From an uncultured Clostridium sp. (GTDB lineage Bacteria > Bacillota > Clostridia > TANB77 > CAG-508): a stretch of DNA of 64,000 nt. A program made the translations under genes and the position numbers. Positions within the stretch are counted from its first letter, which is position 1; every line of letters begins with the position of its first letter. Under the pieces are notes generated by a model, which did not search any database, had not been told where the DNA came from, and worked only from the letters and a program-made list of their open reading frames with translations. Shown piece after piece: positions 22,605-55,677 of the stretch. The DNA lies in assembly GCA_900553015.1 (NCBI GenBank), contig USBY01000006.1, forward strand, positions 19,999 through 83,998, in the 5' to 3' direction.

Positions 22605-22639
22605 GGAACGTCCCTCGGGATTTGGGGACGTTCTTTTTT
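22605..22639 (+). repeat. Copy a of the dispersed GGGATTTGGGGACGTTCC hairpin repeat family, variant form GGAACGTCCC-tcgggattt-GGGGACGTTC followed by T6. Acts as terminator of the DUF975 gene.
   Basis: 10-bp inverted repeat and U-run read from the sequence. Shares the core CGGGATTTGGGGACGTTC with 7 other sites. Confidence 0.7.
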
Positions 22640-22647
22640 CCCTTTTA

Positions 22648-22674
22648 GGGATTTGGGGACGTTCCTCAAATCCC
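22648..22674 (+). repeat. Copy b of the repeat family: GGGATTTGGGGACGTTCCTCAAATCCC
   Basis: Stem GGGATTT/AAATCCC enclosing the conserved loop GGGGACGTTCC. Confidence 0.7.
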
Positions 22675-22702
22675 GATTTTTTATTTATAATTCTAAAGCA
22701 AA

Positions 22703-22736
22703 AACTTCTTATACATATTGTATAAGAAGTTTTTTA
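22703..22736. terminator. Bidirectional terminator hairpin (AACTTCTTATAC-ATAT-TGTATAAGAAGTT) between the convergent DUF975 and tex genes
   Basis: Palindrome flanked by A-run and T-run. Confidence 0.55.
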
Positions 22737-22748
22737 TCTTCTATATAA

Positions 22749-24902
22749 TTACCCTATTTTCATAGAAAGCTTTACTTTTTGTCTATCATTATCTATTCCA
22801 ATAACTTTTACTTTTACAATATCTCCAACAGAAACTATATCTGATGGATTTTTAACAAATTTTTCGCTCATCTCTGATATGTGGACAAGTCCATCATGTT
22901 TTACACCAATATCCACAAATGCTCCAAAGTCAATTACATTTCTAACAGTACCTGTTAATATCATACCTTCTTTTAGGTCTTCAAATTTTAAAACATCTTG
23001 TCTTAATATTGGTTTTGGCATGTCTTCTCTAGGATCCCTACCAGGTTTAGACAACTCATCTATTATATCTTTTAATGTCATCTCACCTACATTTAGAGCT
23101 TTTGCTGTTTCGGTTAAATTTATACTTCCTAATTTTTTTCTAAGCTCTATTAATTTATCCTTATCTTTTAAATCCTCTGTTCCATAGCCTAAAGTTTTTA
23201 ACAATTCTTCTGCTATTTCGTAGCTTTCAGGGTGTACTGCTGTATTTTCTAATGGGTTTGTTCCATCAGGAATTCTAATAAATCCAGCACATTGTTCAAA
23301 AGCAACTTTACCTAATTTAGGAACTTTAAGTAATTCTTTTCTAGTTTTTAACTTTCCGTTTTCATCTCTGTATTTTACTATGTTTTTAGCTATAGTTTTA
23401 TTTATTCCTGAAACATATGAAAGAAGTGATGGTGTCGCAGTATTTACATCTACTCCAACCTTATTAACACTATCTTCTACAACTCCTGCTAAGCTTTCTT
23501 CCAATTTCTTTTGATTTACATCATGTTGATATTGACCTACACCTATAGATTTAGGGTCAATTTTAACGAATTCTGCAAGAGGATCTTGAAGTCTTCTAGC
23601 TATAGATATTGCACCTCTTATAGAAACATTTATATCTGGATACTCCTCTGTTGCAAGTTTTGATGCAGAATATACAGATGCTCCAGCTTCACTTACTATA
23701 GTATATAAAACTTCGTGGTCACATTTCTTTATCATTTCTGATACAAACATTTCTGATTCTCTTGAAGCTGTTCCATTTCCTATCGCAATCATATCTACAT
23801 GATCTTTATTAATTAATCTTACTAATTCCTTTTCTGCTCCCTCCACATCATTTTGTGGCTCTGTTGGGTATACTGTTGTAATATCTAAAACCTTACCTGT
23901 TTCATCTATTATTGCAATTTTACAACCTGTTCTATATGCTGGGTCAAATCCCATAACTGTTATCCCCTTTATTGGAGCTCCTAATAGTAATTGTTTTGCA
24001 TTTTTACCAAATACTTTTATTGCTTGCTCTTCTGCTTTTTCTGTTAAATCTGATCTTATTTCTCTATCAATAGATGGTTCTATTAATCTTTTAAAACTAT
24101 CTTGAATAGTATCTTTTAAATATTGCGTAAACTGTGTTTCGCCTTTAATTATATCTTTTTCTATTTTTTCTAATATTTTATCTTCTTCTTTTTCTATCTT
24201 AACTTTTAGGAATTCTTCTTTTTCTCCTCTGTTTATTGCAAGAATTCTATGACTTGGTATTTTATTTACATTTTCACTGTAATCATAATACATTTCATAA
24301 GCAGATTTTTCTTCTGGCTTTGTAGCAGTAGTCTTTATAACTCCTTTTGAATATATTATTTGTTTAATTAGCTTTCTATATTCTGGATTATCAGATATCA
24401 TCTCTGCAATAATATCTAATGCTCCCTGTATTGCCTCTTCTACAGTTTTTACTTCTTTTTCTTCATTTATATATTCAGCTGCTATTTCTTGTATATTTTT
24501 TGTCTCTTCTTGAGCCAAAATAATTTCTGCAAGTGGTTCTAAACCTTTTGCTTTTGCTACAGTTGCTCTTGTCTTTTTCTTTTGCTTATATGGTCTATAG
24601 ATATCTTCTACTTCTGCAAGTGTTATAGCATTCTCTAAATCTTTTACTATCTCTTCTGTTAATTTTCCTTGCTCCTCTATAGAATTTGTAACCTCTTCTT
24701 TTCTCTTTTCTAAATTTCTTAAATAATTTAATCTTTCTCCAAAAGTTCTTAAAACTTCGTCAGAAAGCCCTCCTGTTACTTCTTTCCTATATCTAGCAAT
24801 AAAAGGAATTGTGTTTCCTTCATCTATTAGTTTTATTGTATTTTCTACTTGTGATTTTTTTATATTTAATTCAGTTGCTATGATTTGTATAATTTTATCC
24901 AT
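22749..24902 (-). CDS. tex: Transcription accessory protein Tex (YqgF/RuvC-like, HhH and S1 domains)
   Basis: 717 aa. N-terminal MDKIIQIIATELNIKKSQVENTIKLIDEGNTIPFIARYRKE. C-terminal S1 domain. Confidence 0.95.
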   Translation of the reverse strand: MDKIIQIIATELNIKKSQVENTIKLIDEGNTIPFIARYRKEVTGGLSDEVLRTFGERLNYLRNLEKRKEEVTNSIEEQGKLTEEIVKDLENAITLAEVEDIYRPYKQKKKTRATVAKAKGLEPLAEIILAQEETKNIQEIAAEYINEEKEVKTVEEAIQGALDIIAEMISDNPEYRKLIKQIIYSKGVIKTTATKPEEKSAYEMYYDYSENVNKIPSHRILAINRGEKEEFLKVKIEKEEDKILEKIEKDIIKGETQFTQYLKDTIQDSFKRLIEPSIDREIRSDLTEKAEEQAIKVFGKNAKQLLLGAPIKGITVMGFDPAYRTGCKIAIIDETGKVLDITTVYPTEPQNDVEGAEKELVRLINKDHVDMIAIGNGTASRESEMFVSEMIKKCDHEVLYTIVSEAGASVYSASKLATEEYPDINVSIRGAISIARRLQDPLAEFVKIDPKSIGVGQYQHDVNQKKLEESLAGVVEDSVNKVGVDVNTATPSLLSYVSGINKTIAKNIVKYRDENGKLKTRKELLKVPKLGKVAFEQCAGFIRIPDGTNPLENTAVHPESYEIAEELLKTLGYGTEDLKDKDKLIELRKKLGSINLTETAKALNVGEMTLKDIIDELSKPGRDPREDMPKPILRQDVLKFEDLKEGMILTGTVRNVIDFGAFVDIGVKHDGLVHISEMSEKFVKNPSDIVSVGDIVKVKVIGIDNDRQKVKLSMKIG

Positions 24903-24914
24903 TTTATCTCCCTT

Positions 24915-24940
24915 CGGGATTTAGGGACGTTCCTTTTCCC
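24915..24940 (+). repeat. Copy c of the repeat family: CGGGATTTAGGGACGTTCC followed by TTTTCCCTTTTCCC
   Basis: Core match. Lies between the minus-strand ABC-F and tex genes. Confidence 0.6.
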
Positions 24941-24978
24941 TTTTCCCTTTTGCATTTTTCCTTTTTACTTTTCCTTTT

Positions 24979-28135: not shown

Positions 28136-28187
28136 ATTATAAACCCCTCCTACTCTTTTTATTTTGTTTGCCTTGTGAATTTAAAAA

Positions 28188-28214
28188 GGGATTTTAAGCA
28201 ACGTCCCTAAATCC
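28188..28214 (-). repeat. Copy d of the repeat family in minus orientation (minus strand reads GGGATTTAGGGACGTTGCTTAAAATCCC plus T5), between the giant surface-protein gene end and the corA start
   Basis: Core match in reverse orientation. Confidence 0.65.
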
Positions 28215-28228
28215 CCCCTCTGTTAAAT

Positions 28229-28308: not shown

Positions 28309-31300
28309 CTATAAAACTTTCTTCTTTATTATTACAATTCCTGCTACTAATACTCCTAAACTAACTATAGCAATTACTATTAATGTTAACTGTCTGTTTG
28401 CACCAAATGGTACTACAAATGTTAATACTTCTGCTTTTCCAGTATCAACCTCTTCTATATTTTTAAGAGTTGATGGATATGTATTACCTGGAATTTCTAC
28501 TACTTCTTTATTCGTAGTATCTTCATAGTATGGTCTTCTACCATTAGCTATAGTCAATCTTATAACTTCTGCTATATTTTGTATTTCATCGGCATTTGAT
28601 GTGTCTTCTGTTCTTGCAATAACCCTTGTAAGTGTCATAACATCTTCCAATGATATATAGTCATCACTTCTTAAGTATTGAGTTGCTTCACCTGGTAAAT
28701 TAGTTAATAATATTTCATCCACTGAATTTTTAGCTTCATCAAAAGCACCAGGCTCTAATAATGTTCCCCTATAATTATCTGGAAGTTTTATAGATTCATC
28801 TCTATTTGCAATTACTTGCCATAAATCAGCACTTTGTATAGTTTTTCCTGCAACTGCATATGAACCGTTTCCTGGATTTATAGCATATGAAATCGTTCCG
28901 TATTGTTTTGTTAGTTCTACATCATATTGTAATGAATTTGGTATATAATCAATTATTGCTGTAGCTACAATTGTATTTTCGGTATTTCTATTTGAAACAA
29001 CTCCTGTATAATAATATGATCTATCATTATAATCTAACTCGCTATGATTTCTTAAAGTTAAAGAATATCTTACAGTTAATGTAGAACCATATAGTAAGTT
29101 TTCATCTACAGTACCTTGTACTAATCCGCTAGATGTCATATTTCCTCTATTATTATATTTGTTTTCTTTCCATGTTAAGTTAGAAGTTGACTGATTTGTA
29201 TCGAATATAGTTGTACCATCTGTAGCTGTTAATTTAATATGTGATACATTCTTTTCTAATACAATTTTTGTTCTTGGTCTCTCTATTATTCCGAAATCCA
29301 CATTTTGTACTTTATATGATGTCTTTTCATTTTTCAAGTATTCAATTTCCATTGCCATTTTGGCTGTATTTGCAGTCATATATGTGTTCTCTGCTAATGT
29401 TGATAATAAGTTAGAATTACTTGTTCTTGTTGCATTTAATACAGTAGCAACATCATATTTATAATCTTTACTATATGAATTTACAGTCTCTCTTCTAGAG
29501 TAATCATCTGCTGCATCATTCTTACGTGGTGAAGTATTCTTATACCAATATAAATCTGAGTAATCTCCTTCTGTATAAATTGTAGATTTATAATCTTGAC
29601 CTGTATACATTTGATTATTCTTTTGAGGATTTACTAAACATTCATAATCACCATAAGTAAATTTAATTAGATAATCTCCTGGGATATATCCAGATAATGT
29701 GTAGCTTCCATCCTCGTTACTTCTCGTTTCTACTTTATTTAAAGTATCAACATCATCGTTATTTTGACAAAGTAATTCTACTTTTACTTTATTTACAATA
29801 TTTTCTCCACTTGCATATTGTCCATCACCAATTCTTTCATTATGATCTAATTTATCTTTAAGTGGTAAATCCTCGAATACAGTACCTGATATTGTTCTTT
29901 CTGTATCATCTCTTATAAGTTTTAATCCTGGTGCAACATCTGCATCATCTTCAAATACCGCACTACTGCGTTTTGTTTTTTCTGTACCATCTAGGCTTTG
30001 GTAAGCATTAGTCTTTGATTGTTTTACAAAGTTTTGAACATTAGAAGATGTTGGGTTCATGTTGTCTGGTGTTGAGTCTATATCTAATAAACCTGCAACA
30101 GCTCCTGCATTTGTTATTTTATTACCATTTAAGTCATATCTATCTGATGTATAAGTATTTCTATAACCTGCAATTTCTGCAAAGTTTTCTTCTAGTGTCT
30201 CTCCTGTTGATAGTAATTCTCTTAAGGTATCGTATGAAACTTTGTATTGCATAAAGATCCATTTCTTATCTGTTATTCCTTCATTTGCTATACCTGTTGT
30301 ATGAATCTTATTATATGTCTTACCATTTCCAGATACACTACCTGAAGAACTCCAATTTATGGCTTTTCCATTCTCATCATAAGAATTTACTAATTGATAT
30401 GATGTATCTGCATAATCATTTAAGTCTGTTATATATCCTGTAATTTTACCAACTGATTGGTTCTTTATTTGTATTTTATATGTTACATATACTTGTAATT
30501 TATCTGGATCAGAATCATACTGTGCAGCTGATTTATATTGTAAGTCTGTTTTTCTTAGTTTTCTTTCATAATCAGGTATATCTGTACCTCTTATCGTTAC
30601 TTCTAAATCTTCTCCTGCACCATTATAATCATATGTATGGCTCTTACCATTTATTGTTACATCAACTTTTACTAAGTCTTTTCTTAAGTTCATATCAAAT
30701 TCTTCTCTATCTTTTATACCAAAGTTAACGTTTTGTGTCTGTTCTGTAGTATTTGCTGCATTATATAATAATAAGTTTTGTAATCCATTTGAGCCTGTAT
30801 ATGCATAGATCATAAACATTTCATTGTTAGTATCATCTCTATCTGGATATTTATGATTTGCATCTACTTGTGCAAATTTATTATTAAATGAATTTCTATT
30901 TTGTGTTCCATCTGTTGCATATGATCTTTCTGCAACTGTTGTATCTACCTTATTATTACCTGTTCCAGTATATTTCTTTTGAGTTTGATATGTTGTTGGT
31001 TCATAAAGTTGTCCATTATATTTAAATCTTACATAATAACTCTTAGATGGATCTAGTTTGTCAAACTCATAGTATCCATTGTTATTTGTACTTGTTTGCG
31101 CTACTTGTTTTCTTGATGAATCAAATAATACTACTTCTATTCCTGGTAACATTTTATCGCCAGTACTTAAAATACCATCTTCACTTCCATCTTTTTGTGC
31201 TAAATTATCTTTAAATACCTTACCTGCTATTTTTAAAGTTAATGTTACTGGTATTCCATTATTACTAATAGTACTTTTATCTCCTGAAGCATTTATTTTA

Positions 31301-32940
31301 TCTGAAGCAACAATTTCAAAGTATATCATTGTATTTGATCCTCTATAATATTGCATTGCTTGAGAACCTTTAAATCCTTTAAGCGAACTACTTAATGTAA
31401 TCGTTTTCGTATAGTTATTTCCGCTTTTTGTCCATCCATTTGATTTTCCGTCTTGAATTTTTAGTCCAGTACTTGGCTCATCTACCAAAGTTACTTTTGT
31501 ACCTGGAGGAGAGCTTCCTGGTCCTATATTATATATTACCCATTGATACTCTACAATGTCCCCATTGTATACATATGGCACTCCATTAGAATTAAGCTCA
31601 CTTGCATCACAATATTTTTTATAGTCTGGATATGTTACACTTTTAACTGAAGCATTATTCTTTCCTTTATTATTAACTGTTATTGTTGGCACTTCGTTTA
31701 CTGTAAATATTCTTGTATATGAACCATCTTCTTGCTTTCTTTGGATTGATTTTATATATTTATATTTAACTATAACTGGTTCTGCTGGTGGAACTTTTAA
31801 AGTAAGTTCTGTTGAACCTGGTACATCTTGAGTATTAAACACTGCAATTCTTTGGTTCTCTCCACCGGCAAAAAGCATTATTCTGGTTGCATGAACAGAA
31901 TTTCCTGTACCTGTTAATTTTATGCTTTTAATATCCTCTGCTATATCACGAATTTTAATATAAAAATCCGTATCGTTAGCAATTTTGTCCATTCCAATTG
32001 CATTCTTAGAAGAATCTAGTATCGCTATATTTGATGTTGTATATGTTGTAGTTGCTGTTTCAATAGTTACTCCAGTAACTTTTGCGCTTCCAGTTTTCTT
32101 GATTCTATATGGTCCTAAAATAGTTTCTTTATCTGTATATTCTATATCTGGATCTCCTACTGATGTATTTGTAATTCCTCCTACACCATTTACTCTGTCT
32201 TCGGCATATCTTCTTGCTTCCTCATATACTGATGTATAATCATATTGTGTATCTCCTTTGTATCCATATATTCTTTGCCACTGTTGCCCTTTCCATTGAG
32301 ATACACCACCTGTATATTCATCTTCGGAATATTTACTTCCTGCCATTATATTAAAAACACTATTGTAATTTTTAGCATAATTACAAAATACAAAGAAATT
32401 TGTAGAATACCATCCATCTATAACGCTCTGTGAACTACTGTTAGCATCTTGTATTCCAGAATTTCCATGTAACATCCAGTTTGCAATTCCTGCCAAGAAA
32501 CGAGCTCTTTTTACAACATCTGAATTTGTTATTCTCTGTGCTCCTGCGGTTCCATAATATGCTCCTGATGCTACATATACATTTAAACCTGTCCAATCTG
32601 ATAACTTAGTATTATATTTATTGTCTATATCTACAATTGCTTGTAACCTATATGATGATCCATAATTTCCGTCTGCTGTGTGGTCTGGGTCAAAACACGC
32701 AGCAGTTGATTTCCAAATTGTAGCATCTTGTGTTCCATCTCCTACATATAAATCAACTGTTGTTGTGTCTGTATAATCATATGATAAGAAATCAGTTGGA
32801 TTAGAAAATGCTTTGTTAGCAATATCTTTATCTGTTATCCCTTCTACCACATTTGTAAATATTATAGCCATTCCTATTATTATAACTATTAATAAGGCAA
32901 GATTAATTAAGATTTTCTTTTTTGTTTCTTTATTTTCCAT
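28309..32940 (-). CDS. Giant cell-surface protein (1543 aa): N-terminal signal anchor, multiple Cna-B/SdrD-B-type and other Ig-like repeat domains, C-terminal hydrophobic segment plus KKK tail, no LPXTG
   Basis: Cna-B-like segments (NGYYEFDKLDPSKSYYVRFKYNG; SGYIPGDYLIKFTYGDYE). Ser/Thr/Asn-rich. RBS GGGGAGGG. Start overlaps the end of the upstream giant gene by 11 nt. Confidence 0.85.
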   Translation of the reverse strand: MENKETKKKILINLALLIVIIIGMAIIFTNVVEGITDKDIANKAFSNPTDFLSYDYTDTTTVDLYVGDGTQDATIWKSTAACFDPDHTADGNYGSSYRLQAIVDIDNKYNTKLSDWTGLNVYVASGAYYGTAGAQRITNSDVVKRARFLAGIANWMLHGNSGIQDANSSSQSVIDGWYSTNFFVFCNYAKNYNSVFNIMAGSKYSEDEYTGGVSQWKGQQWQRIYGYKGDTQYDYTSVYEEARRYAEDRVNGVGGITNTSVGDPDIEYTDKETILGPYRIKKTGSAKVTGVTIETATTTYTTSNIAILDSSKNAIGMDKIANDTDFYIKIRDIAEDIKSIKLTGTGNSVHATRIMLFAGGENQRIAVFNTQDVPGSTELTLKVPPAEPVIVKYKYIKSIQRKQEDGSYTRIFTVNEVPTITVNNKGKNNASVKSVTYPDYKKYCDASELNSNGVPYVYNGDIVEYQWVIYNIGPGSSPPGTKVTLVDEPSTGLKIQDGKSNGWTKSGNNYTKTITLSSSLKGFKGSQAMQYYRGSNTMIYFEIVASDKINASGDKSTISNNGIPVTLTLKIAGKVFKDNLAQKDGSEDGILSTGDKMLPGIEVVLFDSSRKQVAQTSTNNNGYYEFDKLDPSKSYYVRFKYNGQLYEPTTYQTQKKYTGTGNNKVDTTVAERSYATDGTQNRNSFNNKFAQVDANHKYPDRDDTNNEMFMIYAYTGSNGLQNLLLYNAANTTEQTQNVNFGIKDREEFDMNLRKDLVKVDVTINGKSHTYDYNGAGEDLEVTIRGTDIPDYERKLRKTDLQYKSAAQYDSDPDKLQVYVTYKIQIKNQSVGKITGYITDLNDYADTSYQLVNSYDENGKAINWSSSGSVSGNGKTYNKIHTTGIANEGITDKKWIFMQYKVSYDTLRELLSTGETLEENFAEIAGYRNTYTSDRYDLNGNKITNAGAVAGLLDIDSTPDNMNPTSSNVQNFVKQSKTNAYQSLDGTEKTKRSSAVFEDDADVAPGLKLIRDDTERTISGTVFEDLPLKDKLDHNERIGDGQYASGENIVNKVKVELLCQNNDDVDTLNKVETRSNEDGSYTLSGYIPGDYLIKFTYGDYECLVNPQKNNQMYTGQDYKSTIYTEGDYSDLYWYKNTSPRKNDAADDYSRRETVNSYSKDYKYDVATVLNATRTSNSNLLSTLAENTYMTANTAKMAMEIEYLKNEKTSYKVQNVDFGIIERPRTKIVLEKNVSHIKLTATDGTTIFDTNQSTSNLTWKENKYNNRGNMTSSGLVQGTVDENLLYGSTLTVRYSLTLRNHSELDYNDRSYYYTGVVSNRNTENTIVATAIIDYIPNSLQYDVELTKQYGTISYAINPGNGSYAVAGKTIQSADLWQVIANRDESIKLPDNYRGTLLEPGAFDEAKNSVDEILLTNLPGEATQYLRSDDYISLEDVMTLTRVIARTEDTSNADEIQNIAEVIRLTIANGRRPYYEDTTNKEVVEIPGNTYPSTLKNIEEVDTGKAEVLTFVVPFGANRQLTLIVIAIVSLGVLVAGIVIIKKKVL

Positions 32941-35900
32941 TCTTTCTTAACCCTCCCCTTCTTTTTATAATAATTCTAGCTATTAATACTAAGATAGCTA
33001 ATATTAAGATTATTAATATTGTTATTTGTACTGCACCTGTTTTTACTCCTATAATTAATTGTGCTGTATTATTTTCACTATTAATATCTATATTTAGATT
33101 TGCATTCTCGCTTTGTACATTTGAAATATCTGCTTTATTTACAACATTCTTTCCTTCTCCTTGGCTTCCTGTTGTAGTTGTCATAGTTAATTTTATAGAT
33201 TTTGTTTCTCCTGCACCAATAGTAGTATTTTCTAATTGATTTGTTGCTAAGTCATTTCCTTTACTATACCAATTTCCTGAAGTATCTTTTAATTGTAAAT
33301 CACTGCTTGGTGTATCTACTATTTCTTGAATTGTCTCTGCAGTTTCTCCTTGGTTTTGTATATCTATTGTATATTCGATTTCTATTTGTGCATTTGCCAT
33401 TTCCTTAGAAGCTATTTCAACTTTTGCTATTTGTTTTCTATCAAAGTTATATGTTTTTGTACTTTTATTTGTTTTTACTGTAACTTTTGTTATTGTTTTT
33501 GAAATATTTAATTTTCTAGCTGAGAATTCAATAAATCCAGCATTTATATTGTTTAAATCGCTATCTTCTACTGTTAATTCTTCTGTTGCTGCTACTTTCT
33601 TTCTTTGACCATTTTCTTCTATCTCTGCTTCTAATACATCAGAATTACTATTTTCATCAATACCATTTGCTTTGTAAGGTGATAAATAATATTTTGAAGT
33701 ATCATATTCAAATATAACTCTATAATTACCATTCTCTACTTCATTAAATTCATAATATCCATTTGAACTAGAAGTAGTTTCTTGCAATATTGTTCCTGTC
33801 CCAGTAATTAATAATACTCTAATATCAGGAATATTTACTTCTGAAGAATCTTTTACCCCATCTTTGTCTGCATCATTCCATGTAAATCCATTTATCGAAA
33901 TATTAGTTCCTGGATTATCTGGGTCTGGATCTGGGTTTGGCTCATCGCCACCACCTGGTTCTCCAGAGATTTCATCAACTATTTTATGTTTTATTGTATT
34001 AGATGTTTGCTCTTTTTTTACCTGCCTTGAATTTAATGTAACTGTATTTGATATTTCTGTATTATTATTTAAATATGTATTAATTGTAGTCTCGATTACT
34101 AATTTTACTTGTTCTTTTGCTTGTATTGTTGCCGGTATAGAAATAACTTGTCCATTTACAGTAAGTTCTGTCTGTTGTCCATTTTGTTCTAAGTATGCTC
34201 TATTTACTACTGCATTTTCTGGAACATCATCTGTAATCGTAACATCTGCTGCAATATCACCTTCATTTGTAATCTCTGTTGTGTAAATTAAGTTATCATC
34301 TTGTTTTACTTGATCTGCAATATTAGCTGTTTGTTCTAATTTAAATGTTGTTAAAGATTTATTTACAGTAAAATCTAATTGTCCAGATAAATACTCCTCA
34401 TCATTATAAAGTGCATTACAGAATGTATAGAATGTATTTGTTTTTAATCCGTCTTCTAAAGGATTAAATAATGCATATGTATAAATAACTACTGTTTGTC
34501 CTGCTGGAATACTTTTTACTGTATATTTTAATGTATTGTCTTTGTTCTCTATTATTTCTGCATTATTTGTTGGTGTTGAATCTAATATTTGTTCTGTAAT
34601 TACAACATTCTTTGTATAATAAAATGAAACTACTAAGTCATTTATATCTTCATTAGATAAATTCTTGATTTTCATTCCAAATATTGCTGCTCCATCTTCT
34701 GTTAAAGAATCTGGATATCCAGTTGTTGTTCCTGGATCTAATAAAATTTGTAGTTTAGCATCTTTTATTGGATTCTCTATAGATTTTATTTCTTTTTCAC
34801 TAATAGAATCTGCAGCTATTTTTATAGTCGCTTGAGTTGAACTATTATCTCCTGCTTTCTTTACAATTACTTGGTAGTTTAATTCAACTTCTTCACCTGC
34901 ACCTAAACTTTCTATTGTAAATTCTTGTTCTTTTTTGTCTGGTACTTCATAAAATCCTTGGTTAACAAGATCTTCTGTAACTTGTTTTGTCATAAATTCA
35001 TAAAATACTGCATTTGTATTTGTTGCTGTAAGTTTTATATTATTTATAGTTTTATCTGTTGTGTTCGTTAATTTAATAATATATTTAAGGTTTTGCTCAT
35101 CATGTACATCTTCTCCAGCTTGTAATGAAACATTTCCTTTTACTACAGATATTTCTGTTTTTATCTCTGATTCATCAACTGTAGATGCTTCTGGGTCTGC
35201 CTCATTTAATTGCATATCTTCTGTAGAAACTTTAATTCCAGACCAGTTATTTACTTCATTTTCATTTTGCTTTGCATTTGCTATAAATGCAACATATGAG
35301 CTTTTACTATATGATATATTTTCTGGTATTTTTAGGTCATACTCGATTGTTACTGTATCACCTTTATTTAAATTTGAATTATCAAATGATATTTTAAATA
35401 AATTACTATTTTCAGTTTTAGTCTCTGACCAGTTTTCATTATCTTCTGAATAATATATTTTAGCATCATCTCTGTTTATATAAACATTTCCTACAATTTC
35501 ACCATTAAAGTTTGAATTAATAGAATTTTCTCCTAAAGTATATTGTCTATCTTCTATTGGTGTCATTCCAACTAGTTCAAAGTTATTTACAGTATTATCA
35601 AAATTATTTACTACTGTTTCTTTTACATGAATTGTTTGTTCTACTGTATTTGCTCTTAATTTTACTTCTTTTAACTCTTTGTTCTTTGATGTTGTTCCAT
35701 TTACTTCTGTTTGCATTACAAATCCATATGGAGCTGTTATTTTTATAGGAACATTATATGTACCATTATTATCATATGTTATGGCTTTTTCATTTGTATA
35801 TACATATGTAATATTAGTATCTCTTGATGTTAAGTCTTGATATGTTTTTACAGTTCCACTTATAGAAATTTGTGTGTTTGCAGTTATATCATTATTTAAA

Positions 35901-37753
35901 TATTCTTGTTGTTCTCCTGTTACATATATTGTTAATGTTTTCGTTCCGTCAGGATTGTTTACCATATTGCTACTTTGTAAACGCAATCCATTTTCAAAAG
36001 ACATACCAATTTGTTCTATATTTACAGTTTCAAATTCACTTGGGAATATTACTTGTAATACTGGATTTTTGTATAAATCGTAGTCCATATTTTGTGTGTT
36101 TAAATTTAATTTCATATTTATTTTAGATTCATTATCTATTGTATAGAATTCTGTTTTATCTATTTCCATTGTAGATTTAGTAACTGTATTATATAGGTTA
36201 ATATTTTTTTCTGTAGTATTAGAGTAAATCATATTGTTTGTCTCAAATACTAGTTTTAATTGATTTATTGCTTTTAATTCATCATTGCTTATTCCATGAT
36301 TACTTATAATTTTTTTACTACTATTTATATGAATATTTCCTATTTTTGCTGGATCTTTTATTACAATTTTAATTCTTGATACATTTTCATAATTTACTAC
36401 TATATTTCCATTTTCATCTGCCTGTGTATCTTTATTAATAGTAATTATTAGATTTCCAGTATTTTCGTCATATATTTCTAAAGAACCTTTATCTCCTAAT
36501 ATTTCTGTAACTTCTGCTTTTGATATTGCTGTTCTTGTATAAGATGTTTTATTTGTTATATTTAAATTTGTTTCATCTCCAACTAAAGTGTTTTCTTTTT
36601 CTGTTATTTCTATATTTCTATTTGGTAAAATGTATTGTATTTGTACATTCATATTTACATCATAAGGTGTTTCGTATTTTTGCCAATACATATATCCTTT
36701 GCTTATATTTTCTGCACTACTTATATCTACTTTAGTTGTTTGATTTGTTTTCTCTTTCTCTAAATTATTTTCGAAAGAAATATTAGTTTCATTTAAATTA
36801 TATGGTTTTACTTTTAAGTTTTGCTTTACATTAATATTTACCTTGTCTAGATTAAATTGACTTCCATATACATATATAACATCATAGTTTATATTTCCTA
36901 ATAAATTATTTATCTCATTATTTTCATTTGAAGTATTTTCTTTTCTTATTAAAAGGGTTTTATTTTCCTTATCGTAAGTAAATTCATTTTCAGAAAGTTT
37001 CTTTCCATTTTCAGTTATATCTATTTCTTCTGGAATAGTTCCATTTATCTCTGGCACATTTGAACTAAATTCTACATATTCCATAGGTACTGTAATGTTA
37101 TTAATTGTTCCTAGTGTATTAGTAATTACTATAGACTTTCCATCAGCCTCGATATAGTTTTCTATATTTGTTTGTAATGCTCCTTCCACATTAGATATCC
37201 ATTTTAACCTTACAGCTATGTTACCTGATATATTTTTATTTGATTTCTGGCTATCAGTATATGTTCCTTCTAAAGTTATTTCTGTATCTCTTTCTAAATC
37301 AGTTAAGTTAACCTTGTCACCAGCTTTATAACTTATTTTTACAGGAATTTCTACATTTTCTGATATTTGATTAAGTTCTATACTGTTTTCTGTTTCATTT
37401 ACACTTTTGATAAGTGTATTTGACTTCAATTCTTCATAATTTATTGCAAAATTTGGATTATTTAAATTGATTTTTGCATTTTGAATAATTCCCTCTTGCA
37501 ATGAAATATTGAAATACAAATAATTTTCATCTTTTGTATTTACTTCAGCCATATGAACTTTATCTTCCCCGTTTTTTAAATACGCATCAAAATTAACCTT
37601 TCTATCTCCTGCCTCAGTTTTTTGATTTTCATACTCGCTAACTGCTGCAGCTACTTCTGATAGAAAAGTTCCATAAGAAGATATAATTACCATCACGATA
37701 ATTAATGCTGAAATAAATTTACTGCATATACTTAATTTCTTTTCTTTTTCCAT
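32930..37753 (-). CDS. Giant cell-surface protein (about 1607 aa): signal peptide, DUF11/Cna-B-type repeats, C-terminal TM plus basic tail. Start reassigned to ATG 37753 (RBS GAGGGG).
   Basis: Signal peptide MEKEKKLSICSKFISALIIVMVIISSYGTFLSEVAAAV. Cna-B-like NGYYEFNEVENGNYRVIFEYD. PDPDPDN linker. C-terminal ILIILILAILVLIARIIIKRRGG. Confidence 0.85.
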   Translation of the reverse strand: MEKEKKLSICSKFISALIIVMVIISSYGTFLSEVAAAVSEYENQKTEAGDRKVNFDAYLKNGEDKVHMAEVNTKDENYLYFNISLQEGIIQNAKINLNNPNFAINYEELKSNTLIKSVNETENSIELNQISENVEIPVKISYKAGDKVNLTDLERDTEITLEGTYTDSQKSNKNISGNIAVRLKWISNVEGALQTNIENYIEADGKSIVITNTLGTINNITVPMEYVEFSSNVPEINGTIPEEIDITENGKKLSENEFTYDKENKTLLIRKENTSNENNEINNLLGNINYDVIYVYGSQFNLDKVNINVKQNLKVKPYNLNETNISFENNLEKEKTNQTTKVDISSAENISKGYMYWQKYETPYDVNMNVQIQYILPNRNIEITEKENTLVGDETNLNITNKTSYTRTAISKAEVTEILGDKGSLEIYDENTGNLIITINKDTQADENGNIVVNYENVSRIKIVIKDPAKIGNIHINSSKKIISNHGISNDELKAINQLKLVFETNNMIYSNTTEKNINLYNTVTKSTMEIDKTEFYTIDNESKINMKLNLNTQNMDYDLYKNPVLQVIFPSEFETVNIEQIGMSFENGLRLQSSNMVNNPDGTKTLTIYVTGEQQEYLNNDITANTQISISGTVKTYQDLTSRDTNITYVYTNEKAITYDNNGTYNVPIKITAPYGFVMQTEVNGTTSKNKELKEVKLRANTVEQTIHVKETVVNNFDNTVNNFELVGMTPIEDRQYTLGENSINSNFNGEIVGNVYINRDDAKIYYSEDNENWSETKTENSNLFKISFDNSNLNKGDTVTIEYDLKIPENISYSKSSYVAFIANAKQNENEVNNWSGIKVSTEDMQLNEADPEASTVDESEIKTEISVVKGNVSLQAGEDVHDEQNLKYIIKLTNTTDKTINNIKLTATNTNAVFYEFMTKQVTEDLVNQGFYEVPDKKEQEFTIESLGAGEEVELNYQVIVKKAGDNSSTQATIKIAADSISEKEIKSIENPIKDAKLQILLDPGTTTGYPDSLTEDGAAIFGMKIKNLSNEDINDLVVSFYYTKNVVITEQILDSTPTNNAEIIENKDNTLKYTVKSIPAGQTVVIYTYALFNPLEDGLKTNTFYTFCNALYNDEEYLSGQLDFTVNKSLTTFKLEQTANIADQVKQDDNLIYTTEITNEGDIAADVTITDDVPENAVVNRAYLEQNGQQTELTVNGQVISIPATIQAKEQVKLVIETTINTYLNNNTEISNTVTLNSRQVKKEQTSNTIKHKIVDEISGEPGGGDEPNPDPDPDNPGTNISINGFTWNDADKDGVKDSSEVNIPDIRVLLITGTGTILQETTSSSNGYYEFNEVENGNYRVIFEYDTSKYYLSPYKANGIDENSNSDVLEAEIEENGQRKKVAATEELTVEDSDLNNINAGFIEFSARKLNISKTITKVTVKTNKSTKTYNFDRKQIAKVEIASKEMANAQIEIEYTIDIQNQGETAETIQEIVDTPSSDLQLKDTSGNWYSKGNDLATNQLENTTIGAGETKSIKLTMTTTTGSQGEGKNVVNKADISNVQSENANLNIDINSENNTAQLIIGVKTGAVQITILIILILAILVLIARIIIKRRGGLRKNGK

Positions 37754-37933
37754 AGGAACACCCCTCATAATTTGCATAAATATATATAATAAAATATAAC
37801 AATATAAAGCTTTTAGTTCAATATACTTATTTTTTGTCTTTTTTTATCGTATTAGATGCCTTTACGGATGTTCATTTCATTAAATTATTACAATTCCATT
37901 AAATATTTATTTTCTTTTTATTACACACAAAAA

Positions 37934-41788: not shown

Positions 41789-41864
41789 TGGTGCACCACC
41801 GGGGGGTCGAACCCCGGACCTTCTGATTAAGAGTCAGCTGCTCTACCAACTGAGCTAGTGGTGC
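41789..41864 (-). tRNA. tRNA-Lys (anticodon CTT), 76 nt with encoded CCA
   Basis: Minus-strand sequence GCACCACTAGCTCAGTTGGTAGAGCAGCTGACTCTTAATCAGAAGGTCCGGGGTTCGACCCCCCGGTGGTGCACCA folds as a cloverleaf. Anticodon loop CTCTTAA. Upstream promoter TTGACA at 41914-41919. Confidence 0.9.
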
Positions 41865-45110: not shown

Positions 45111-45123
45111 ATTAAACATTTCT

Positions 45124-45151
45124 CGGGATTTGGGGACGTTCCTAGAATCCC
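45124..45151 (+). repeat. Copy e of the repeat family: CGGGATTTGGGGACGTTCCTAGAATCCC followed by T7. Terminator of the CBM-like gene.
   Basis: Core match plus U-run. Confidence 0.7.
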
Positions 45152-45166
45152 TTTTTTTGTTAGTAT

Positions 45167-46046: not shown

Positions 46047-46122
<76 letters not shown>

Positions 46123-46133
46123 ATATGGTCATA

Positions 46134-46208
46134 TGGTGACCCGTACGGGAATCGAACCCATGTCTCCGCCGTGAAAGGGCGATGTCTTAACCGCTTGACC
46201 AACGGGCC
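46134..46208 (-). tRNA. tRNA-Glu (anticodon TTC), 75 nt with CCA
   Basis: GGCCCGTTGGTCAAGCGGTTAAGACATCGCCCTTTCACGGCGGAGACATGGGTTCGATTCCCGTACGGGTCACCA on the minus strand. Anticodon loop CTTTCAC. Confidence 0.9.
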
Positions 46209-46249
46209 ATAAATATAAATGAATACTAAAGATTAGTTTAGTATTCATT

Positions 46250-46325
46250 TGGTGAGCTATCCGCGACTCGAACGCGGGACAACTTGATTAAAAGTCAAGT
46301 GCTCTACCACCTGAGCTAATAGCCC
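46250..46325 (-). tRNA. tRNA-Lys (anticodon TTT), 76 nt with CCA
   Basis: GGGCTATTAGCTCAGGTGGTAGAGCACTTGACTTTTAATCAAGTTGTCCCGCGTTCGAGTCGCGGATAGCTCACCA on the minus strand. Anticodon loop CTTTTAA. Confidence 0.9.
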
Positions 46326-52132: not shown

Positions 52133-52146
52133 TTTGGAACATTTTT

Positions 52147-52174
52147 CGGGATTTGGGGACGTTCCTTTTTTCCC
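52147..52174 (+). repeat. Copy f of the repeat family: CGGGATTTGGGGACGTTCCTTTTTTCCC, preceded by GGAAC. Terminator position after dnaI.
   Basis: Core match. GGAAC...GTTCC alternative stem, as in copy a. Confidence 0.7.
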
Positions 52175-52198
52175 TATTTTAATACTTCCATTATAAAG

Positions 52199-52240
52199 TA
52201 ATTCACCCCTTGAGCGGTTGCTCAAGGGGTGAATATTTTT
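52199..52240. terminator. GC-rich perfect hairpin TTCACCCCTTGAGC-GGTT-GCTCAAGGGGTGAA followed by a T-run
   Basis: 14-bp perfect stem. GC content is atypical for this genome. Flanks the small sigma-like HTH gene. Confidence 0.55.
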
Positions 52241-52265
52241 AGTGGATGACTTCAGATGTTAAATA

Positions 52266-52499
52266 TTAATATTCATCTTCAACATCTAATAATATTCTCT
52301 CTGGCAAGTTATGGCTATCAAACTCATCCAAATGATCCCTTATATATCTAAGATCCTTTTCGATGGTTGATTCTGAATAGCCACTAAAGTCTGCCACCAT
52401 CTCAAGAGTCATGCCTTCCACATAAACTGCAGAGAATACATCCTCTCTCCGTTTCTGGACAGCAGTTGATTGTGATAAATCAATTATGCCTTTAATCAT
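52266..52499 (-). CDS. Small sigma-70 region-4-like HTH protein (77 aa), noticeably GC-richer than its surroundings
   Basis: YVEGMTLEMVADFSGYSESTIEKDLRYIRDHL resembles the region-4 HTH of ECF sigma factors and ArpU-like regulators. RBS GAGGAGG. Confidence 0.55.
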   Translation of the reverse strand: MIKGIIDLSQSTAVQKRREDVFSAVYVEGMTLEMVADFSGYSESTIEKDLRYIRDHLDEFDSHNLPERILLDVEDEY

Positions 52500-52688
52500 T
52501 CCAGTTTCCTCCTCAACAATTTATTATGCACCATTATACACTTTTTCTTTTAATTTTTCAAGTTTTATGTATACCTGTTGCCTTGTTTATACATTAAAAT
52601 TGATATTGAAGAGTTTGATTTATTTCTAATATCTATATTAAAACTAAAAAAGCTATAATCATAAGATTATAGCTTTTTTCCAATTTAA

Positions 52689-52964
52689 TTAGTTTTGAGT
52701 ATATGGTAAAACAGCAATATGTCTTGCTCTTTTTACTGCTAAAGTAATATCTCTTTGATGTTTAGCACATGCTCCTGTTGCTCTTCTTGGTAATATTTTA
52801 CCTTTATCATTTATAAATTTTCTTAATTGTTCTGCATTTTTATAATCTAATTCTAAATCTTTATCTGCACATAAAGGACATACTTTTTTTCTCATTTTTC
52901 TAAATCTTGGATTGAAATCGTCATCATTTCTATTGTTTCTTCTATTTTGTTTTTTGTCTGCCAT
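52689..52964 (-). CDS. rpsR: 30S ribosomal protein S18
   Basis: [14 protein letters not shown]...[10 protein letters not shown]...[32 protein letters not shown], canonical S18. Confidence 0.95.
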
Positions 52965-53446: not shown

Positions 53447-53740
53447 TTATTTTTCTTTTCTTACTACGATAAATTTCATGATGTTGTCTTCTATTCTGTA
53501 ATTTCTTTCTAATTCATCTATTGAATCTGGTTTAGCTTCGAAGTTAATTACTACGTAATATCCTTCTTCTTTCTTTTTGATAGGATAAGCTAATTTTTGT
53601 GTACCACGTTCATCAACAGATTCTACTTTACCATTATTATTAATCAAATCTGTGAACTTTGTTACTAAATCTTTTATAGCTTGTTCTTCAATAGATGGAT
53701 TAATAATGATAACACTCTCGTATTTATTCATTATATTCAC
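53447..53740 (-). CDS. rpsF: 30S ribosomal protein S6
   Basis: MNKYESVIIINPSIEEQAIKDLVTKF..., canonical S6. RBS GAGGAGGTG. Confidence 0.95.
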   Translation of the reverse strand: MNIMNKYESVIIINPSIEEQAIKDLVTKFTDLINNNGKVESVDERGTQKLAYPIKKKEEGYYVVINFEAKPDSIDELERNYRIEDNIMKFIVVRKEK

Positions 53741-53808
53741 CTCCTCATGGTTTAATAACCCATCAACTAAATGGGTAAGGAGAAAAGATCTCTCTTTTCA
53801 GCACAGGT

Positions 53809-53837
53809 ATTTTATCATATTTTTTCCTGTTTTGCAA
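53809..53837 (-). promoter_or_regulatory. Sigma-A promoter of the rpsF-ssb-rpsR operon: minus-strand -35 TTGCAA at 53832-53837, 17-nt spacer, -10 TAAAAT at 53809-53814
   Basis: Consensus hexamers and spacing, read from the sequence. Confidence 0.45.
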
Positions 53838-53879
53838 CTGATTACTTGAAAAAATTGACATTTTATAGTAAAATGAATA

Positions 53880-53906
53880 GGGATTTGGGGACGTTCCTAA
53901 AATCCC
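53880..53906 (+). repeat. Copy g of the repeat family: GGGATTTGGGGACGTTCCTAAAATCCC followed by TATTTTT. Lies in the 5' leader of the permease gene, just downstream of a TTGAAA-17-TAAAAT promoter (53845-53873).
   Basis: Perfect consensus copy. Positioned where it would act as a 5'-UTR attenuator hairpin. Confidence 0.7.
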
Positions 53907-53956
53907 TATTTTTATATATACGTATTTTATATTATTTTATAGATAGGAGTATTATT

Positions 53957-54811
53957 ATGTGGGATGCAATTTTAGATAGTTTAATAGATACCGTAAAGTT
54001 AATTCCATTTTTACTAATAACATATATAATAATGGAATTTATAGAACATAAAACTAGTCATAAAACTAAAGATGCTATTAAAAAATCCGGACATTTTGGT
54101 CCATTAATTGGTGGTATCTTAGGTGTTGTACCACAATGTGGTTTCTCTGCAGCAGCTTCTAGCTTATATTCAGCTAGAATTATTACTTTAGGTACATTGA
54201 TTGCAGTATTTTTATCTACTTCTGATGAAATGTTGCCAATATTAATTTCTGAAGCAGTAGATGTAAGGATTATTCTTTCAATACTGGGAATTAAACTTGT
54301 TATAGCTGTTGTTGTTGGTTTTATCATTGACCTATTTTTTAGAAAGAAATTTGAAACTTCAGAAGATGAACCAGAAATTAAGGATTTATGCGAGCATGAA
54401 CATTGCCACTGTGAACATGGAATATTTAAGTCTGCTTTAAAACATACTATAAATATTACTTTATATATTTTTATAATATCTTTAGTTTTAAATATAATTA
54501 TATATTTTATTGGAGAAGATAATTTAGCACATATTTTAAATTCTACACCAGTAATTGGACCTATTATCGCTTCATTAGTTGGATTAATTCCTAATTGTGC
54601 ATCATCTGTAATTATTACACAACTATATCTTTCTAACGTACTTAATTTTGCTACAATGATTGCAGGACTTCTTGTTAATACAGGTGTTGGATTATTAATT
54701 TTATTTAGAACTAATAAAGATTTAAAAGAAAATATTAAAATAACAGTATTGTTATTCGCAATTGGTGTTATTTTCGGAATTATATTTGATCTAATCGGAT
54801 TTAACATATAA
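53957..54811 (+). CDS. Polytopic membrane permease (about 10 TM helices) with a His/Cys-rich cytoplasmic loop (CEHEHCHCEHG). Putative metal-ion exporter/permease. Start reassigned from the ORF-track ATG to 53957 (RBS AGGAG).
   Basis: MWDAILDSLIDTVKLIPFLL... hydrophobic throughout. The metal-binding-like loop DLCEHEHCHCEHG lies between TM bundles. The upstream in-frame extension runs through the repeat and promoter, so it is not coding. Confidence 0.6.
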   Translation: MWDAILDSLIDTVKLIPFLLITYIIMEFIEHKTSHKTKDAIKKSGHFGPLIGGILGVVPQCGFSAAASSLYSARIITLGTLIAVFLSTSDEMLPILISEAVDVRIILSILGIKLVIAVVVGFIIDLFFRKKFETSEDEPEIKDLCEHEHCHCEHGIFKSALKHTINITLYIFIISLVLNIIIYFIGEDNLAHILNSTPVIGPIIASLVGLIPNCASSVIITQLYLSNVLNFATMIAGLLVNTGVGLLILFRTNKDLKENIKITVLLFAIGVIFGIIFDLIGFNI

Positions 54812-54869
54812 TTAAATCAAAAAGAGATTACTACATATAAACATAGTAATCTCTTTTTTGTTTATAATT

Positions 54870-55589
54870 TTATATTCCTAATATCTCTTTTGCTCTTTTT
54901 ACATCATCATTTGTTGGCACTTTTACATTTTCAAATTCATATGGAACATTTAATTCTTCCCATTTAAATTTTCCTAAATTATGATATGGTAAAATTTCTA
55001 CTTTAGTAACAGTTTTTAATGATTCTATAAATTCTTTTAATTTTATTAAATCTTCTTCTTTATCTGTATAACCAGGAATTAAAACTTGTCTTATCCACAT
55101 TTCTTTCCCATGTTCACTTAAGTACTTTGCAAATTCTAATTCATATTTATTAGAAACTCCCACTAAATCTTTACAGATATCATCATTTATACATTTAATA
55201 TCTAATAAGAATAAATCAGTAAGCTCAATTACTTCTTTAATTTTATCTGTAATAGGTAGATTTCCAGAAGTATCAACTGCTACTTTTATGTTTCTTTTCT
55301 TCATTTCTTTAAATAATGTAATTAACGCATCTGGTTGAAGAAGTGGCTCCCCACCACTTACTGTTATTCCTCCATCTGCTTGCATATATGCTGTATATCT
55401 TTCAATTTTTTTAACCACGTCATCTATGTCATAGATAGTACCAGAATTTACATCCCAAGTATCACGATTTTGGCAATATTTACATCTCAAATTACATCCT
55501 TGTGTAAATATTACAAATCTTATTCCTGGTCCATCAACTGCTCCTAATGTCTCAAAAGAATGTATTCTCATTTGACTTTTTACGTCCAT
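54870..55589 (-). CDS. pflA: Pyruvate formate-lyase activating enzyme (glycyl-radical-activating radical SAM enzyme). Start reassigned to ATG 55589 (RBS GGAGG).
   Basis: MRIHSFETLGAVDGPGIRFVIFTQGCNLRCKYCQNRDTW with the CxxxCxxC radical-SAM motif. Confidence 0.92.
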   Translation of the reverse strand: MDVKSQMRIHSFETLGAVDGPGIRFVIFTQGCNLRCKYCQNRDTWDVNSGTIYDIDDVVKKIERYTAYMQADGGITVSGGEPLLQPDALITLFKEMKKRNIKVAVDTSGNLPITDKIKEVIELTDLFLLDIKCINDDICKDLVGVSNKYELEFAKYLSEHGKEMWIRQVLIPGYTDKEEDLIKLKEFIESLKTVTKVEILPYHNLGKFKWEELNVPYEFENVKVPTNDDVKRAKEILGI

Positions 55590-55623
55590 AATAATCCTCC
55601 AAATTATTTTTTGCATAAATATA

Positions 55624-55677
55624 GGGATTTTAGGAACGTCCCCAAATCCCTAAAAGGACTGCCCCGAATCCCTATCC
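55624..55677 (-). repeat. Copy h of the repeat family (minus strand reads GGGATTTGGGGACGTTCCTAAAATCCC) in the 92-nt pflB-pflA intergenic spacer, with an extra GAATCCC arm
   Basis: Exact reverse complement of copy g. Confidence 0.7.

Follow-up and report, generated by a model that had tools for sequence, protein, structure and literature searches.

A dispersed family of intergenic hairpin repeats in uncultured gut Clostridia, probably the REPs of a REP/RAYT system

A 64-kb stretch of DNA from an uncultured Clostridium species (contig USBY01000006.1, positions 19,999 to 83,998 of the forward strand; referred to here as the window, with positions counted from its first letter) contains a short hairpin-forming repeat, GGGATTTRGGGACGTTCC, in 8 copies distributed over 7 intergenic sites, where none is expected by chance. 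These copies very probably represent the repetitive extragenic palindromes (REPs) of a REP/RAYT system hosted by a clade of uncultured gut Clostridia with low GC content, known from metagenome-assembled genomes (MAGs) resembling 'Clostridium sp. CAG:354'; RAYT stands for REP-associated tyrosine transposase. The assignment builds on direct observations of the repeat family with its anatomy and distribution, of a RAYT in sister genomes, and of the association and co-variation of RAYT and repeat. The system is of a known kind (REP/RAYT, TIRYT-like) and comes closest to the TIRYT/subclass 2.1 type, without the canonical GTAG foot, while its host clade and sequence form were not found described in the literature searched. 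A string search of the literature for the repeat motif returned unrelated primers and similar sequences only, and no paper containing this repeat.

With the 18-mer GGGATTTGGGGACGTTCC as query and up to 3 mismatches allowed, 8 matches were obtained in the window (22617+, 22648+, 24916+, 28198-, 45125+, 52148+, 53880+, and 55633-), compared to none in any of 100 dinucleotide-preserving shuffles of it. The 10-nt core alone gave 9 window matches against an expectation of 0.16, counting in an inverted half-copy (Table 1). A covariance model trained on 140 copies from other genomes and run over the window with filters off recovered exactly the same 8 copies, with scores of 27.9-55.1 bits, and beyond these nothing scored above their reverse-strand echoes. 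An earlier note on this DNA had described a dispersed hairpin family of at least 8 copies, all of them intergenic, and both statements hold, as the placement of the copy at 53880 inside an open reading frame (ORF) was due to an over-extended ORF call, the respective permease ORF starting at 53939. The window has a G+C content of 27.9% and carries the repeat at a density of about 1 per 8 kb. A scan of the window at Rfam gathering thresholds found no family for the repeat, the sole matches being tRNAs and signal recognition particle (SRP) RNA.

The anatomy of the repeat was derived from 195 copies from 97 sequences. The consensus unit comprises about 27-33 nt and reads (A/T)TA-GGGATTT-R-GGGACGTTCC-T(T)A(A)-AAATCCC-TATTTT; conservation ends at the unit borders, and the sequence further out is variable. 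Folded as RNA or single-stranded DNA, the unit forms an outer stem of 7 bp (GGGAUUU/AAAUCCC) and an inner stem of 4 bp (GGGA/UUCC) closed by a CGU triloop, and its folding energy as RNA is -16 kcal/mol (z = -3.4). The earlier observation that the loop is conserved besides the stem is borne out for the apex of the hairpin, but most of the presumed loop consists of the inner stem around the triloop. The invariant bases of the unit are those of the apical RGGGACG, and the asymmetry of the core (GGGAC/GTTCC) is kept rather than symmetrised. The core GGGACGTTCC also fits the eukaryotic NF-kappaB consensus GGGRNNYYCC, presumably by coincidence. Since a T-rich 3' tail follows the unit in all context classes, it should be regarded as part of the element and not of its context. 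In about one quarter to one third of the copies, an TTTTTTCCC arm is present in place of TTAAATCCC, with the loss of four A-U pairs. An extension of the stem by pairing between the 5' flank (TC/TA) and the 3' flank is weakly supported, a C-G pair occurring in 8 of 43 copies. Covariation within the family is marginal (82.3% of cells paired vs 80.9% in shuffles), because the sequence hardly varies. As judged from their sequences, the repeats are a copied sequence family and not independently evolved structures.

Besides the A unit described above, there are units of a second type, B, with GGGACAGTCC or GGGACACTCC as core, which are usually placed after an A unit. Singletons account for 100 of 230 copies. 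The remaining arrangements include 56 head-to-tail (direct) pairs, which consist either of arm-less 21-22-nt units separated by gaps of 1-5 nt or of full units with gaps of 13-21 nt, and 16 tail-to-tail inverted pairs, some of them forming A-B...B'-A' composites of about 130 nt. Not a single head-to-head pair was found among the 230 copies.

The earlier note had proposed a REP-like repeat, as in bacterial interspersed mosaic elements (BIMEs), and had suggested looking for a TnpA(REP) gene, which proved to be decisive. A search for ORFs with a repeat at most 200 nt away on both sides yielded a list that contained two homologous proteins of about 260 aa from sister genomes (loci L042:273-1058 and L058:5960-6733). 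Both ORFs lie between inverted copies of the very repeat found in the window, with the tails towards the gene, which is accordingly situated inside a tail-to-tail pair. The two proteins match Pfam Y1_Tnp with 40.1 bits (L042) and 28.6 bits (L058) at a cut-off of 23, and NCBIfam REP_Tyr_transpos with E-values of 2e-18 and 5e-19, a much better fit than that to IS200. The motifs H61-A-H63 and Y121-I-H-x-N-P do not vary among 30 homologues, Y---NP being the signature of class 2 TnpAY1 proteins (PMC6006769). A profile search of PDB with the RAYT gave 4ER8 (E. coli TnpAREP) as top match. The same structure is the top Foldseek match of the AlphaFold model (pLDDT 83; 4er8_A, E = 5.5e-7, with a target-normalised TM-score of 0.70), followed by the transposases of IS608, ISDra2, and IS200. 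The structures 2xm3, 2vju, and 2f4f are among the Foldseek matches with the catalytic fold of IS200/IS605 elements. By their family matches, motifs, and modelled fold, the L042 and L058 proteins are to be classified as RAYTs. The proteins are about 256 aa long. A conserved C-terminal motif, NKxIxxILGIGKNRI, is common to the 30 homologues and gives matches to helix-turn-helix (HTH) families that all stay below threshold (Sigma70_r4, E = 3.7e-4; HTH_23, E = 7e-4; HTH_28, E = 3e-3), and the C-terminal domain is helical in the AlphaFold model. A phmmer query with E. coli RayT against all ORFs of a 780-kb sample gave a marginal match only (E = 0.015), which is the true RAYT.

Orthologues with 45-60% identity to the L042 protein are found in the same gene order, holB - PSP1 - ferredoxin - (0 or 1 gene) - RAYT - (small ORF) - PFOR (pyruvate:ferredoxin oxidoreductase), and are again flanked by the repeat. 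Because this synteny is kept over 45-60% protein identity, the gene appears not to move. It seems to stay in a single extragenic location and to be inherited vertically, and the same behaviour has been described for RAYTs in general (PMC5581495; bioRxiv 10.1101/2021.07.10.451892). Bracketing by inverted repeat copies was observed in L042, L058/L108, L099, L105, L107, L109, and L110; in the 20.8-kb loci L107 and L108, strong model matches are confined to the inverted copies beside the RAYT. Units of A and B type both occur beside the RAYT in L058/L108 and L102. As a separate observation, a conserved ORF of 104-108 aa is located just 3' of the RAYT gene in several species, past the downstream REP (L042:1124-1450, L099:2355-2681, and L105:2463-2777). 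With its sequence MKITWL.RRKSFEEIKPNRK.RYEQILESL..GNKTAKEIA..., it looks by eye like a small winged-helix DNA-binding protein.

RAYT homologues that are 40-42% identical reside in other gene neighbourhoods and are accompanied by other repeats. The locus of a 40% identical RAYT (L109) contains the hairpin GGGAAAT-GGGGACGGTTC-TA-ATTTCCC, and a 42% identical RAYT gene (L110) lies between the arms of a perfect inverted repeat of 30 nt, TGAACTTTAGGGACGGACCTTAAAAGTTCA, each of which is itself a hairpin, with more copies nearby. Across the three RAYT lineages, 5 of 7 outer-stem positions change compensatorily and RGGGACG is invariant. The covariation that is marginal within the family thus becomes clear between lineages, and it favours a single strand that is folded and carries a conserved motif for recognition at its apex. 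The specificity of the repeat appears to co-evolve with the RAYT lineage, as suggested by three self-complementary stems sharing one apex.

The co-varying stems also bear on the alternative that the repeats are arrays of sites for a host DNA-binding protein of nucleoid or regulatory type, in which the near-palindrome GGRACGTYCC would lie on one helical face and the RAYT-like gene would be merely one of the flanked genes. Such a role would agree with the near-palindromic core, the array period of 21-22 nt, the indifference of the orientation to transcription, the location of one copy at a predicted transcription start, and the HTH-like tail of the RAYT homologues. However, the asymmetry of the core is conserved, the copies concentrate on the RAYT gene in L107, L108, and L110, and the stems co-vary across lineages in a way that keeps their self-complementarity, which favours a folded single strand over a duplex site. 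As a full explanation, a binding-site array is therefore very unlikely, although it would not be exclusive of the REP/RAYT interpretation, because E. coli REPs are also bound by integration host factor (IHF) and gyrase (PMC6006769).

The repeat is strongly enriched, and it is conserved across many species beyond the window, contrary to both outcomes that would have refuted the proposal of the earlier note. A distribution scan for exact matches with one genome per species found the 18-mer in at least 96 stretches of 8 kb. These belong to at least 28 species-level MAGs whose labels read uncultured Clostridium or Clostridia, one of them being Clostridium sp. CAG:354_28_25. The covariance model gave 201 matches in 770 kb. 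The copies are nearly identical over 18-27 nt at non-orthologous sites in at least 28 species. Two exact singletons outside the clade (L030, an Alcaligenaceae MAG, 1538-1555; L055, a Syntrophales MAG, 1533-1550) were taken as chance matches because both are located inside long ORFs of unrelated MAGs. In the viral collection, only one match was found (L097, an IMG/VR contig, 792-827). As 967 nt of this contig match a locus of the Clostridia MAG HGM13681 (L031) with 99.6% identity, the repeat is not generally phage-borne; L097 may be a prophage or a mis-assigned contig with one REP.

Within the clade, copies are situated outside ORFs or touch only the last few codons. This feature speaks against a further proposal of the earlier note, according to which the repeat would be a signal of the DNA-uptake-sequence type, located within terminators like that of Neisseria; such a signal would serve self-recognition during natural transformation. 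Known uptake sequences are 9-12 nt in length, have a density of about one per kb, and are often found inside genes. The repeat resembles the DNA uptake sequences (DUS), dRS3 and Correia elements of Neisseria and the uptake signal sequences (USS) of Haemophilus in being a clade-specific, over-represented short motif that often forms terminator hairpins after genes, and the near absence of the motif from viral contigs would also be in line with such a function. It differs from them in its longer conserved part of 19-27 nt, in its lower density, in its essentially complete avoidance of coding sequence, and in its tie to a Y1 transposase homologue, with whose lineage it co-varies, rather than with a competence system, the genes of which were not examined. 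An uptake signal is therefore extremely improbable.

The history of individual copies was followed through syntenic alignments. Parts of the window align at 94-96% identity with loci of MNRL01 (CAG:354_28_25) and JAHAKD and at 87-94% identity with loci of CALXVH and CAAEUE. Between species that are 85-96% identical, the orthologous site is likewise occupied for 74 of 80 copies, while the number of units and the arms vary at the shared sites. For example, site 22600 harbors about 2.5 units in the window and 1 in L049, which at site 24916 shows a full hairpin plus an inverted second copy where the window is shorter by about 33 nt. At site 52148, the orthologues in L017 and L090 have the AAATCCC arm and the window has a T-rich arm. 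L090 contains two units at site 53880, one more than the window, and at site 55633 both units are kept in L051 and one in L090 and L093, so that one-unit differences occur at these two sites among L017, L051, L090, and L093. The clearest difference in presence and absence was found in the spacer between the permease gene and pflA, where L090 (941-1010; about 94% identical overall) carries a REP plus a hairpin and the window (54812-54869) a different hairpin with an 18-bp stem and no REP. None of the 6 non-conserved sites represents a clean empty site, the changes being mostly copy-number changes or replaced spacers. A separate difference was noted next to rpsR, where the REP at 52148 is followed in the window by a hairpin with a 15-bp stem (ATTCACCCCTTGAGCGGTTGCTCAAGGGGTGAAT, 52201-52234) and a 77-aa ORF on the minus strand (52266-52499). 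The two features recur in L017 (87% identical overall), and L090, about 95% identical otherwise, contains unrelated sequence with a different small ORF; the region 52190-52700 looks like a swapped cassette.

The orientation of the copies relative to genes was of special interest with regard to their resemblance to Rho-independent terminators. Between co-directional genes, 55 copies are in sense and 53 in antisense orientation, so the terminator orientation regarded as typical in the earlier note does not apply to the family. Convergent intergenic regions contain 43 copies and divergent ones 12. The G-rich head points to the closer gene boundary; sense copies start 0-30 nt past the stop codon and often overlap it (TA|GGG or GGGATTTAG), and in 31 of 195 copies the distance between the head and a reverse-complemented Shine-Dalgarno (SD) sequence plus ATG is 0-14 nt. 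The sequence CCTTC/TTC, corresponding to an SD reverse complement, is also present inside the unit, and its 3' side was considered as a candidate insertion target. In the window, sense and terminator-like copies follow the genes for the DUF975, carbohydrate-binding module (CBM), DnaC-like, and surface proteins; the simple tail rule of the terminator scanner was passed by only 1 window copy. Of the six window copies previously listed as terminator-oriented, the one at 24916 has to be taken out because it is antisense to both flanking genes, which code for ABC-F and Tex. The copy in the pflB-pflA spacer had been set apart from this group; its location in the spacer is correct, but the copy (55633-) is in sense orientation as well.

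Taken by themselves, the good fold, the T-rich tail, the start of the sense copies close to stop codons, and the enrichment in convergent over divergent regions could be explained by ordinary terminators that have become alike by selection for one optimal GC-rich hairpin in an AT-rich genome, with no copying involved. This explanation is nevertheless very unlikely. It leaves the antisense copies unaccounted for, which are almost as numerous as the sense copies and keep the T-run on the non-transcribed side, as well as the near-identity of 18-27 nt at non-orthologous sites, the sequence conservation in those copies that have lost the A-U pairs, the existence of arm-less 21-nt unit arrays, and the bracketing of the RAYT gene. 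Moreover, other terminator hairpins unrelated to the repeat are present in the same window.

The positions of the heads, next to SD sequences in 31 copies and often on stop codons in sense copies, might also be expected of a cis-acting RNA element that is selected for its effect on expression, as an SD-adjacent 5' hairpin or a 3' stabiliser, and for which spreading by a RAYT would be secondary. The sequence identity between orthologous copies seems to point in the same direction, amounting to 0.876 in the core compared to 0.6-0.75 in nearby intergenic DNA, but the core value is inflated by ascertainment because the loci were chosen for exact matches. The placement would be explained equally well by tail-to-tail doublets that fill short spacers with their heads outwards, the orientation is unbiased, and Rfam contains no such family; selection as an RNA element is accordingly very improbable as the primary cause.

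Like the REP/BIME and TnpAREP systems of E. coli and Pseudomonas, including REPINs and the REPtron, the probable REP/RAYT system described here consists of short extragenic imperfect palindromes in many copies, mostly 3' of genes and arranged as singletons, dimers, and clusters, together with a vertically inherited Y1 HUH gene at one extragenic place that is flanked by its own inverted repeats (PMC6006769; PMC5581495; bioRxiv 10.1101/2021.07.10.451892), and each RAYT lineage has its own repeat sequence. Unlike those systems, which are hosted by Proteobacteria and show a GT[AG]G foot (PMC6006769, PMC3733652), the repeats of the low-GC Clostridia clade have no such foot and contain the apical RGGGACG as invariant part, arm-less 21-nt head-to-tail arrays dominate, inverted pairs are tail-to-tail only, and the RAYT of about 256 aa has a C-terminal HTH-like extension. 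The system shares more features with the TIRYTs and TIRtrons described by Di Nocera et al. (2013), long RAYT-like proteins whose flanking inverted repeats have GGGGWSAS in common, some of the terminal inverted repeats (TIRs) being self-complementary and forming moderately abundant dispersed families in dimers or clusters (PMC3733652). TIRYTs correspond to TnpAY1 subclass 2.1 with a C-terminal HTH (Quentin et al., 2018; PMC6006769) and roughly to RAYT Group 1, which was also reported from Clostridia with few associated repeats (Bertels et al., 2017; PMC5581495). The proteins described here resemble this type in length and possibly in a C-terminal HTH-like region, the HTH matches being sub-threshold; the B units GGGGACAG and GGGGACAC conform exactly to GGGGWSAS, and the A units GGGGACGT fit 6 of 8 positions. 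A difference is that the flanking repeats are clear and abundant hairpins, with 8 copies in 64 kb and conservation in at least 28 species. Compared to the subterminal hairpins of IS200/IS605 elements (IS608, ISDra2), the system has in common the predicted catalytic fold and an enzyme that would recognise a folded single-stranded hairpin, whereas the RAYT gene seems immobile, the repeats are dispersed without the gene, and no pair of left and right ends bounding a transposon is present. Two other types of element were rejected: a miniature inverted-repeat transposable element (MITE) mobilized by a DDE transposase, because the unit is too short and has neither target-site duplications nor separate terminal inverted repeats, and a tyrosine-recombinase site (11-6-11), which had no support beyond palindromy.

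Several findings weigh against the assignment of the window repeats to a REP/RAYT system. No RAYT gene is encoded within the window, and its presence in the window's own genome would have to follow from the sister species; the nearest genome with a RAYT, CAKNPW, is about 90-92% identical at shared loci to MNRL01, which in turn is about 95% identical to the window. The RAYT scores of about 67-69 bits with NCBIfam REP_Tyr_transpos are under the curated equivalog cut-off of 80. The unpaired 5' GT[AG]G foot, the canonical hallmark of REPs, is absent, and the 5' side of the stem shows TA/TC with low information content. Head-to-tail arrays of units without 3' arm outnumber inverted doublets, which is unlike BIMEs and REPINs. 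Furthermore, Quentin et al. (2018) found no REP-like sequences beside the genes of subclass 2.1, the long HTH-bearing RAYTs resembled here (PMC6006769). Finally, turnover between close species is slow and proceeds largely within sites, so that current mobility is not demonstrated.

If the REP/RAYT interpretation is correct, the partner of the repeats would be a putatively single-copy, vertically inherited Y1 (HUH) RAYT, encoded elsewhere in the genome between inverted repeat copies. By analogy to the homologous E. coli TnpAREP and the TnpA of IS200/IS605, this enzyme may recognise the folded repeat on single-stranded DNA, cleave it and rejoin the ends. Over long times, its activity would spread, duplicate and delete units in intergenic DNA, which may have resulted in the singletons, head-to-tail arrays, and tail-to-tail doublets. 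Each unit placed in this way would bring its own hairpin and T-run. A sense unit just past a stop codon might then serve as intrinsic terminator or 3' stabiliser of the upstream mRNA, and an antisense unit would present a hairpin just upstream of the SD sequence, which may affect translation or mRNA stability.

The copies of the window and the remnants associated with them are listed in Table 1. The genes beside them are ordinary housekeeping genes, coding for DUF975, Tex, ABC-F, CorA, a large surface protein, a CBM protein, a short-chain dehydrogenase/reductase (SDR), a DnaC-like protein, an ArsP-type permease, and PflA/PflB.

Table 1. Repeat copies and related remnants in the 64-kb window. 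Scores are those of the covariance model.
Feature	Position	Strand	Score (bits)	Remarks
Inverted half-copy, core only	22605..22614	-		GGAACGTCCC, reverse complement of GGGACGTTCC; able to pair with the core of the next copy
REP copy 1	22616..22644	+	27.9	T-rich 3' arm variant GGGATTTGGGGACGTTCTTTTTTCCC; first of a head-to-tail pair; 21 nt past the DUF975 stop
REP copy 2	22645..22680	+	50.6	Complete hairpin GGGATTTGGGGACGTTCCTCAAATCCC, then GATTTTTT; between convergent DUF975 (+) and Tex (-)
REP copy 3	24913..24946	+	31.8	3' arm lost; antisense to both neighbours, ABC-F and Tex (both -)
REP copy 4	28183..28218	-	45.3	Sense; between 1543-aa surface-protein gene and corA
REP copy 5	45122..45157	+	50.4	14 nt past the stop of the CBM25/53 gene; followed by a separate hairpin of the convergent SDR gene
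Degenerate core remnant	52136-52145			GGAACATTTT; directly before REP copy 6
REP copy 6	52136..52180 (including the remnant)	+	53.6	T-rich arm variant; 15 nt past the stop of the DnaC/IstB-like gene
REP copy 7	53877..53912	+	55.1	Divergent region between rpsF-ssb-rpsR operon (-) and ArsP-type permease gene (+)
REP copy 8	55618-55653	-	53.3	Sense; pflB-pflA spacer
Degenerate unit	~55655-55680	-		GGGATTCGGGGCAGTCC; precedes REP copy 8 on its own strand; sense, pflB-pflA spacer

At the first site, the terminator scan indicated an 11-pair stem across 22605-22634 and rated REP copy 2 as terminator-like with 12 pairs. The head of REP copy 3 ends 13 nt from the start codon of Tex and adjoins its SD sequence (CCCgaagggagataaaATG on the mRNA strand). 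Upstream of REP copy 7, a promoter-like sequence (TTGAAA-17-TAAAAT, within 53846-53880), which is kept in L017 and L090, ends about 6 nt before the repeat. With the repeat at this distance, the permease leader would begin with REP copy 7, and a transcript starting with a hairpin and U-run could function as attenuator or 5' stabiliser.

Apart from the repeats, two giant ORFs of 1543 and 1615 aa are adjacent with a slight overlap on the minus strand (28309-37777), forming a 9.5-kb stretch free of REPs; the 1543-aa ORF, with SdrD_B/prealbumin-like domains, probably codes for a surface adhesin. The non-coding RNAs of the window comprise tRNA-Lys(CTT) (41789-41864), a tRNA-Thr/Glu/Lys cluster (46047-46325), and a small SRP RNA (62624-62712), which were the sole matches in the Rfam and ARAGORN scans.

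On a more tentative level, the system might represent a distinct architectural class of REPs, a possibility that is rather doubtful at present. In such a class, the determinant for the RAYT would be the apical RGGGACG, perhaps read by the C-terminal HTH-like domain, instead of a tetranucleotide at the foot. Units would be placed or retained by the enzyme with their heads against stop codons and SD sequences, and head-to-tail arrays would arise from its action inside the unit itself. The repeats would have been recruited by a gut clade with reduced genomes to serve as portable terminators and as 5' hairpins next to SD sequences, and the long HTH-bearing RAYTs of the TIRYT/subclass 2.1 type would gain a dispersed hairpin substrate. 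In any case, the departures from the canonical REP, namely the apical motif, the arm-less arrays, and the heads at gene boundaries, merit the attention of specialists, and a lineage-specific, co-varying stem combined with a fixed RGGGACG apex makes the recognition model testable.

For the clade itself, the repeat accounts for many of the intergenic hairpins, and annotators should not call its copies independently evolved terminators or small RNAs. It can also be used as a sequence marker to bin and type these genomes. With regard to REP/RAYT systems, which are well studied in Proteobacteria, the very probable assignment made here would extend their range by a clean, abundant, and deeply conserved case in uncultured low-GC gut Clostridia, and would do so for a poorly understood type of RAYT, long and with an HTH-like tail, whose link to hairpin repeats was weak or absent in earlier surveys.

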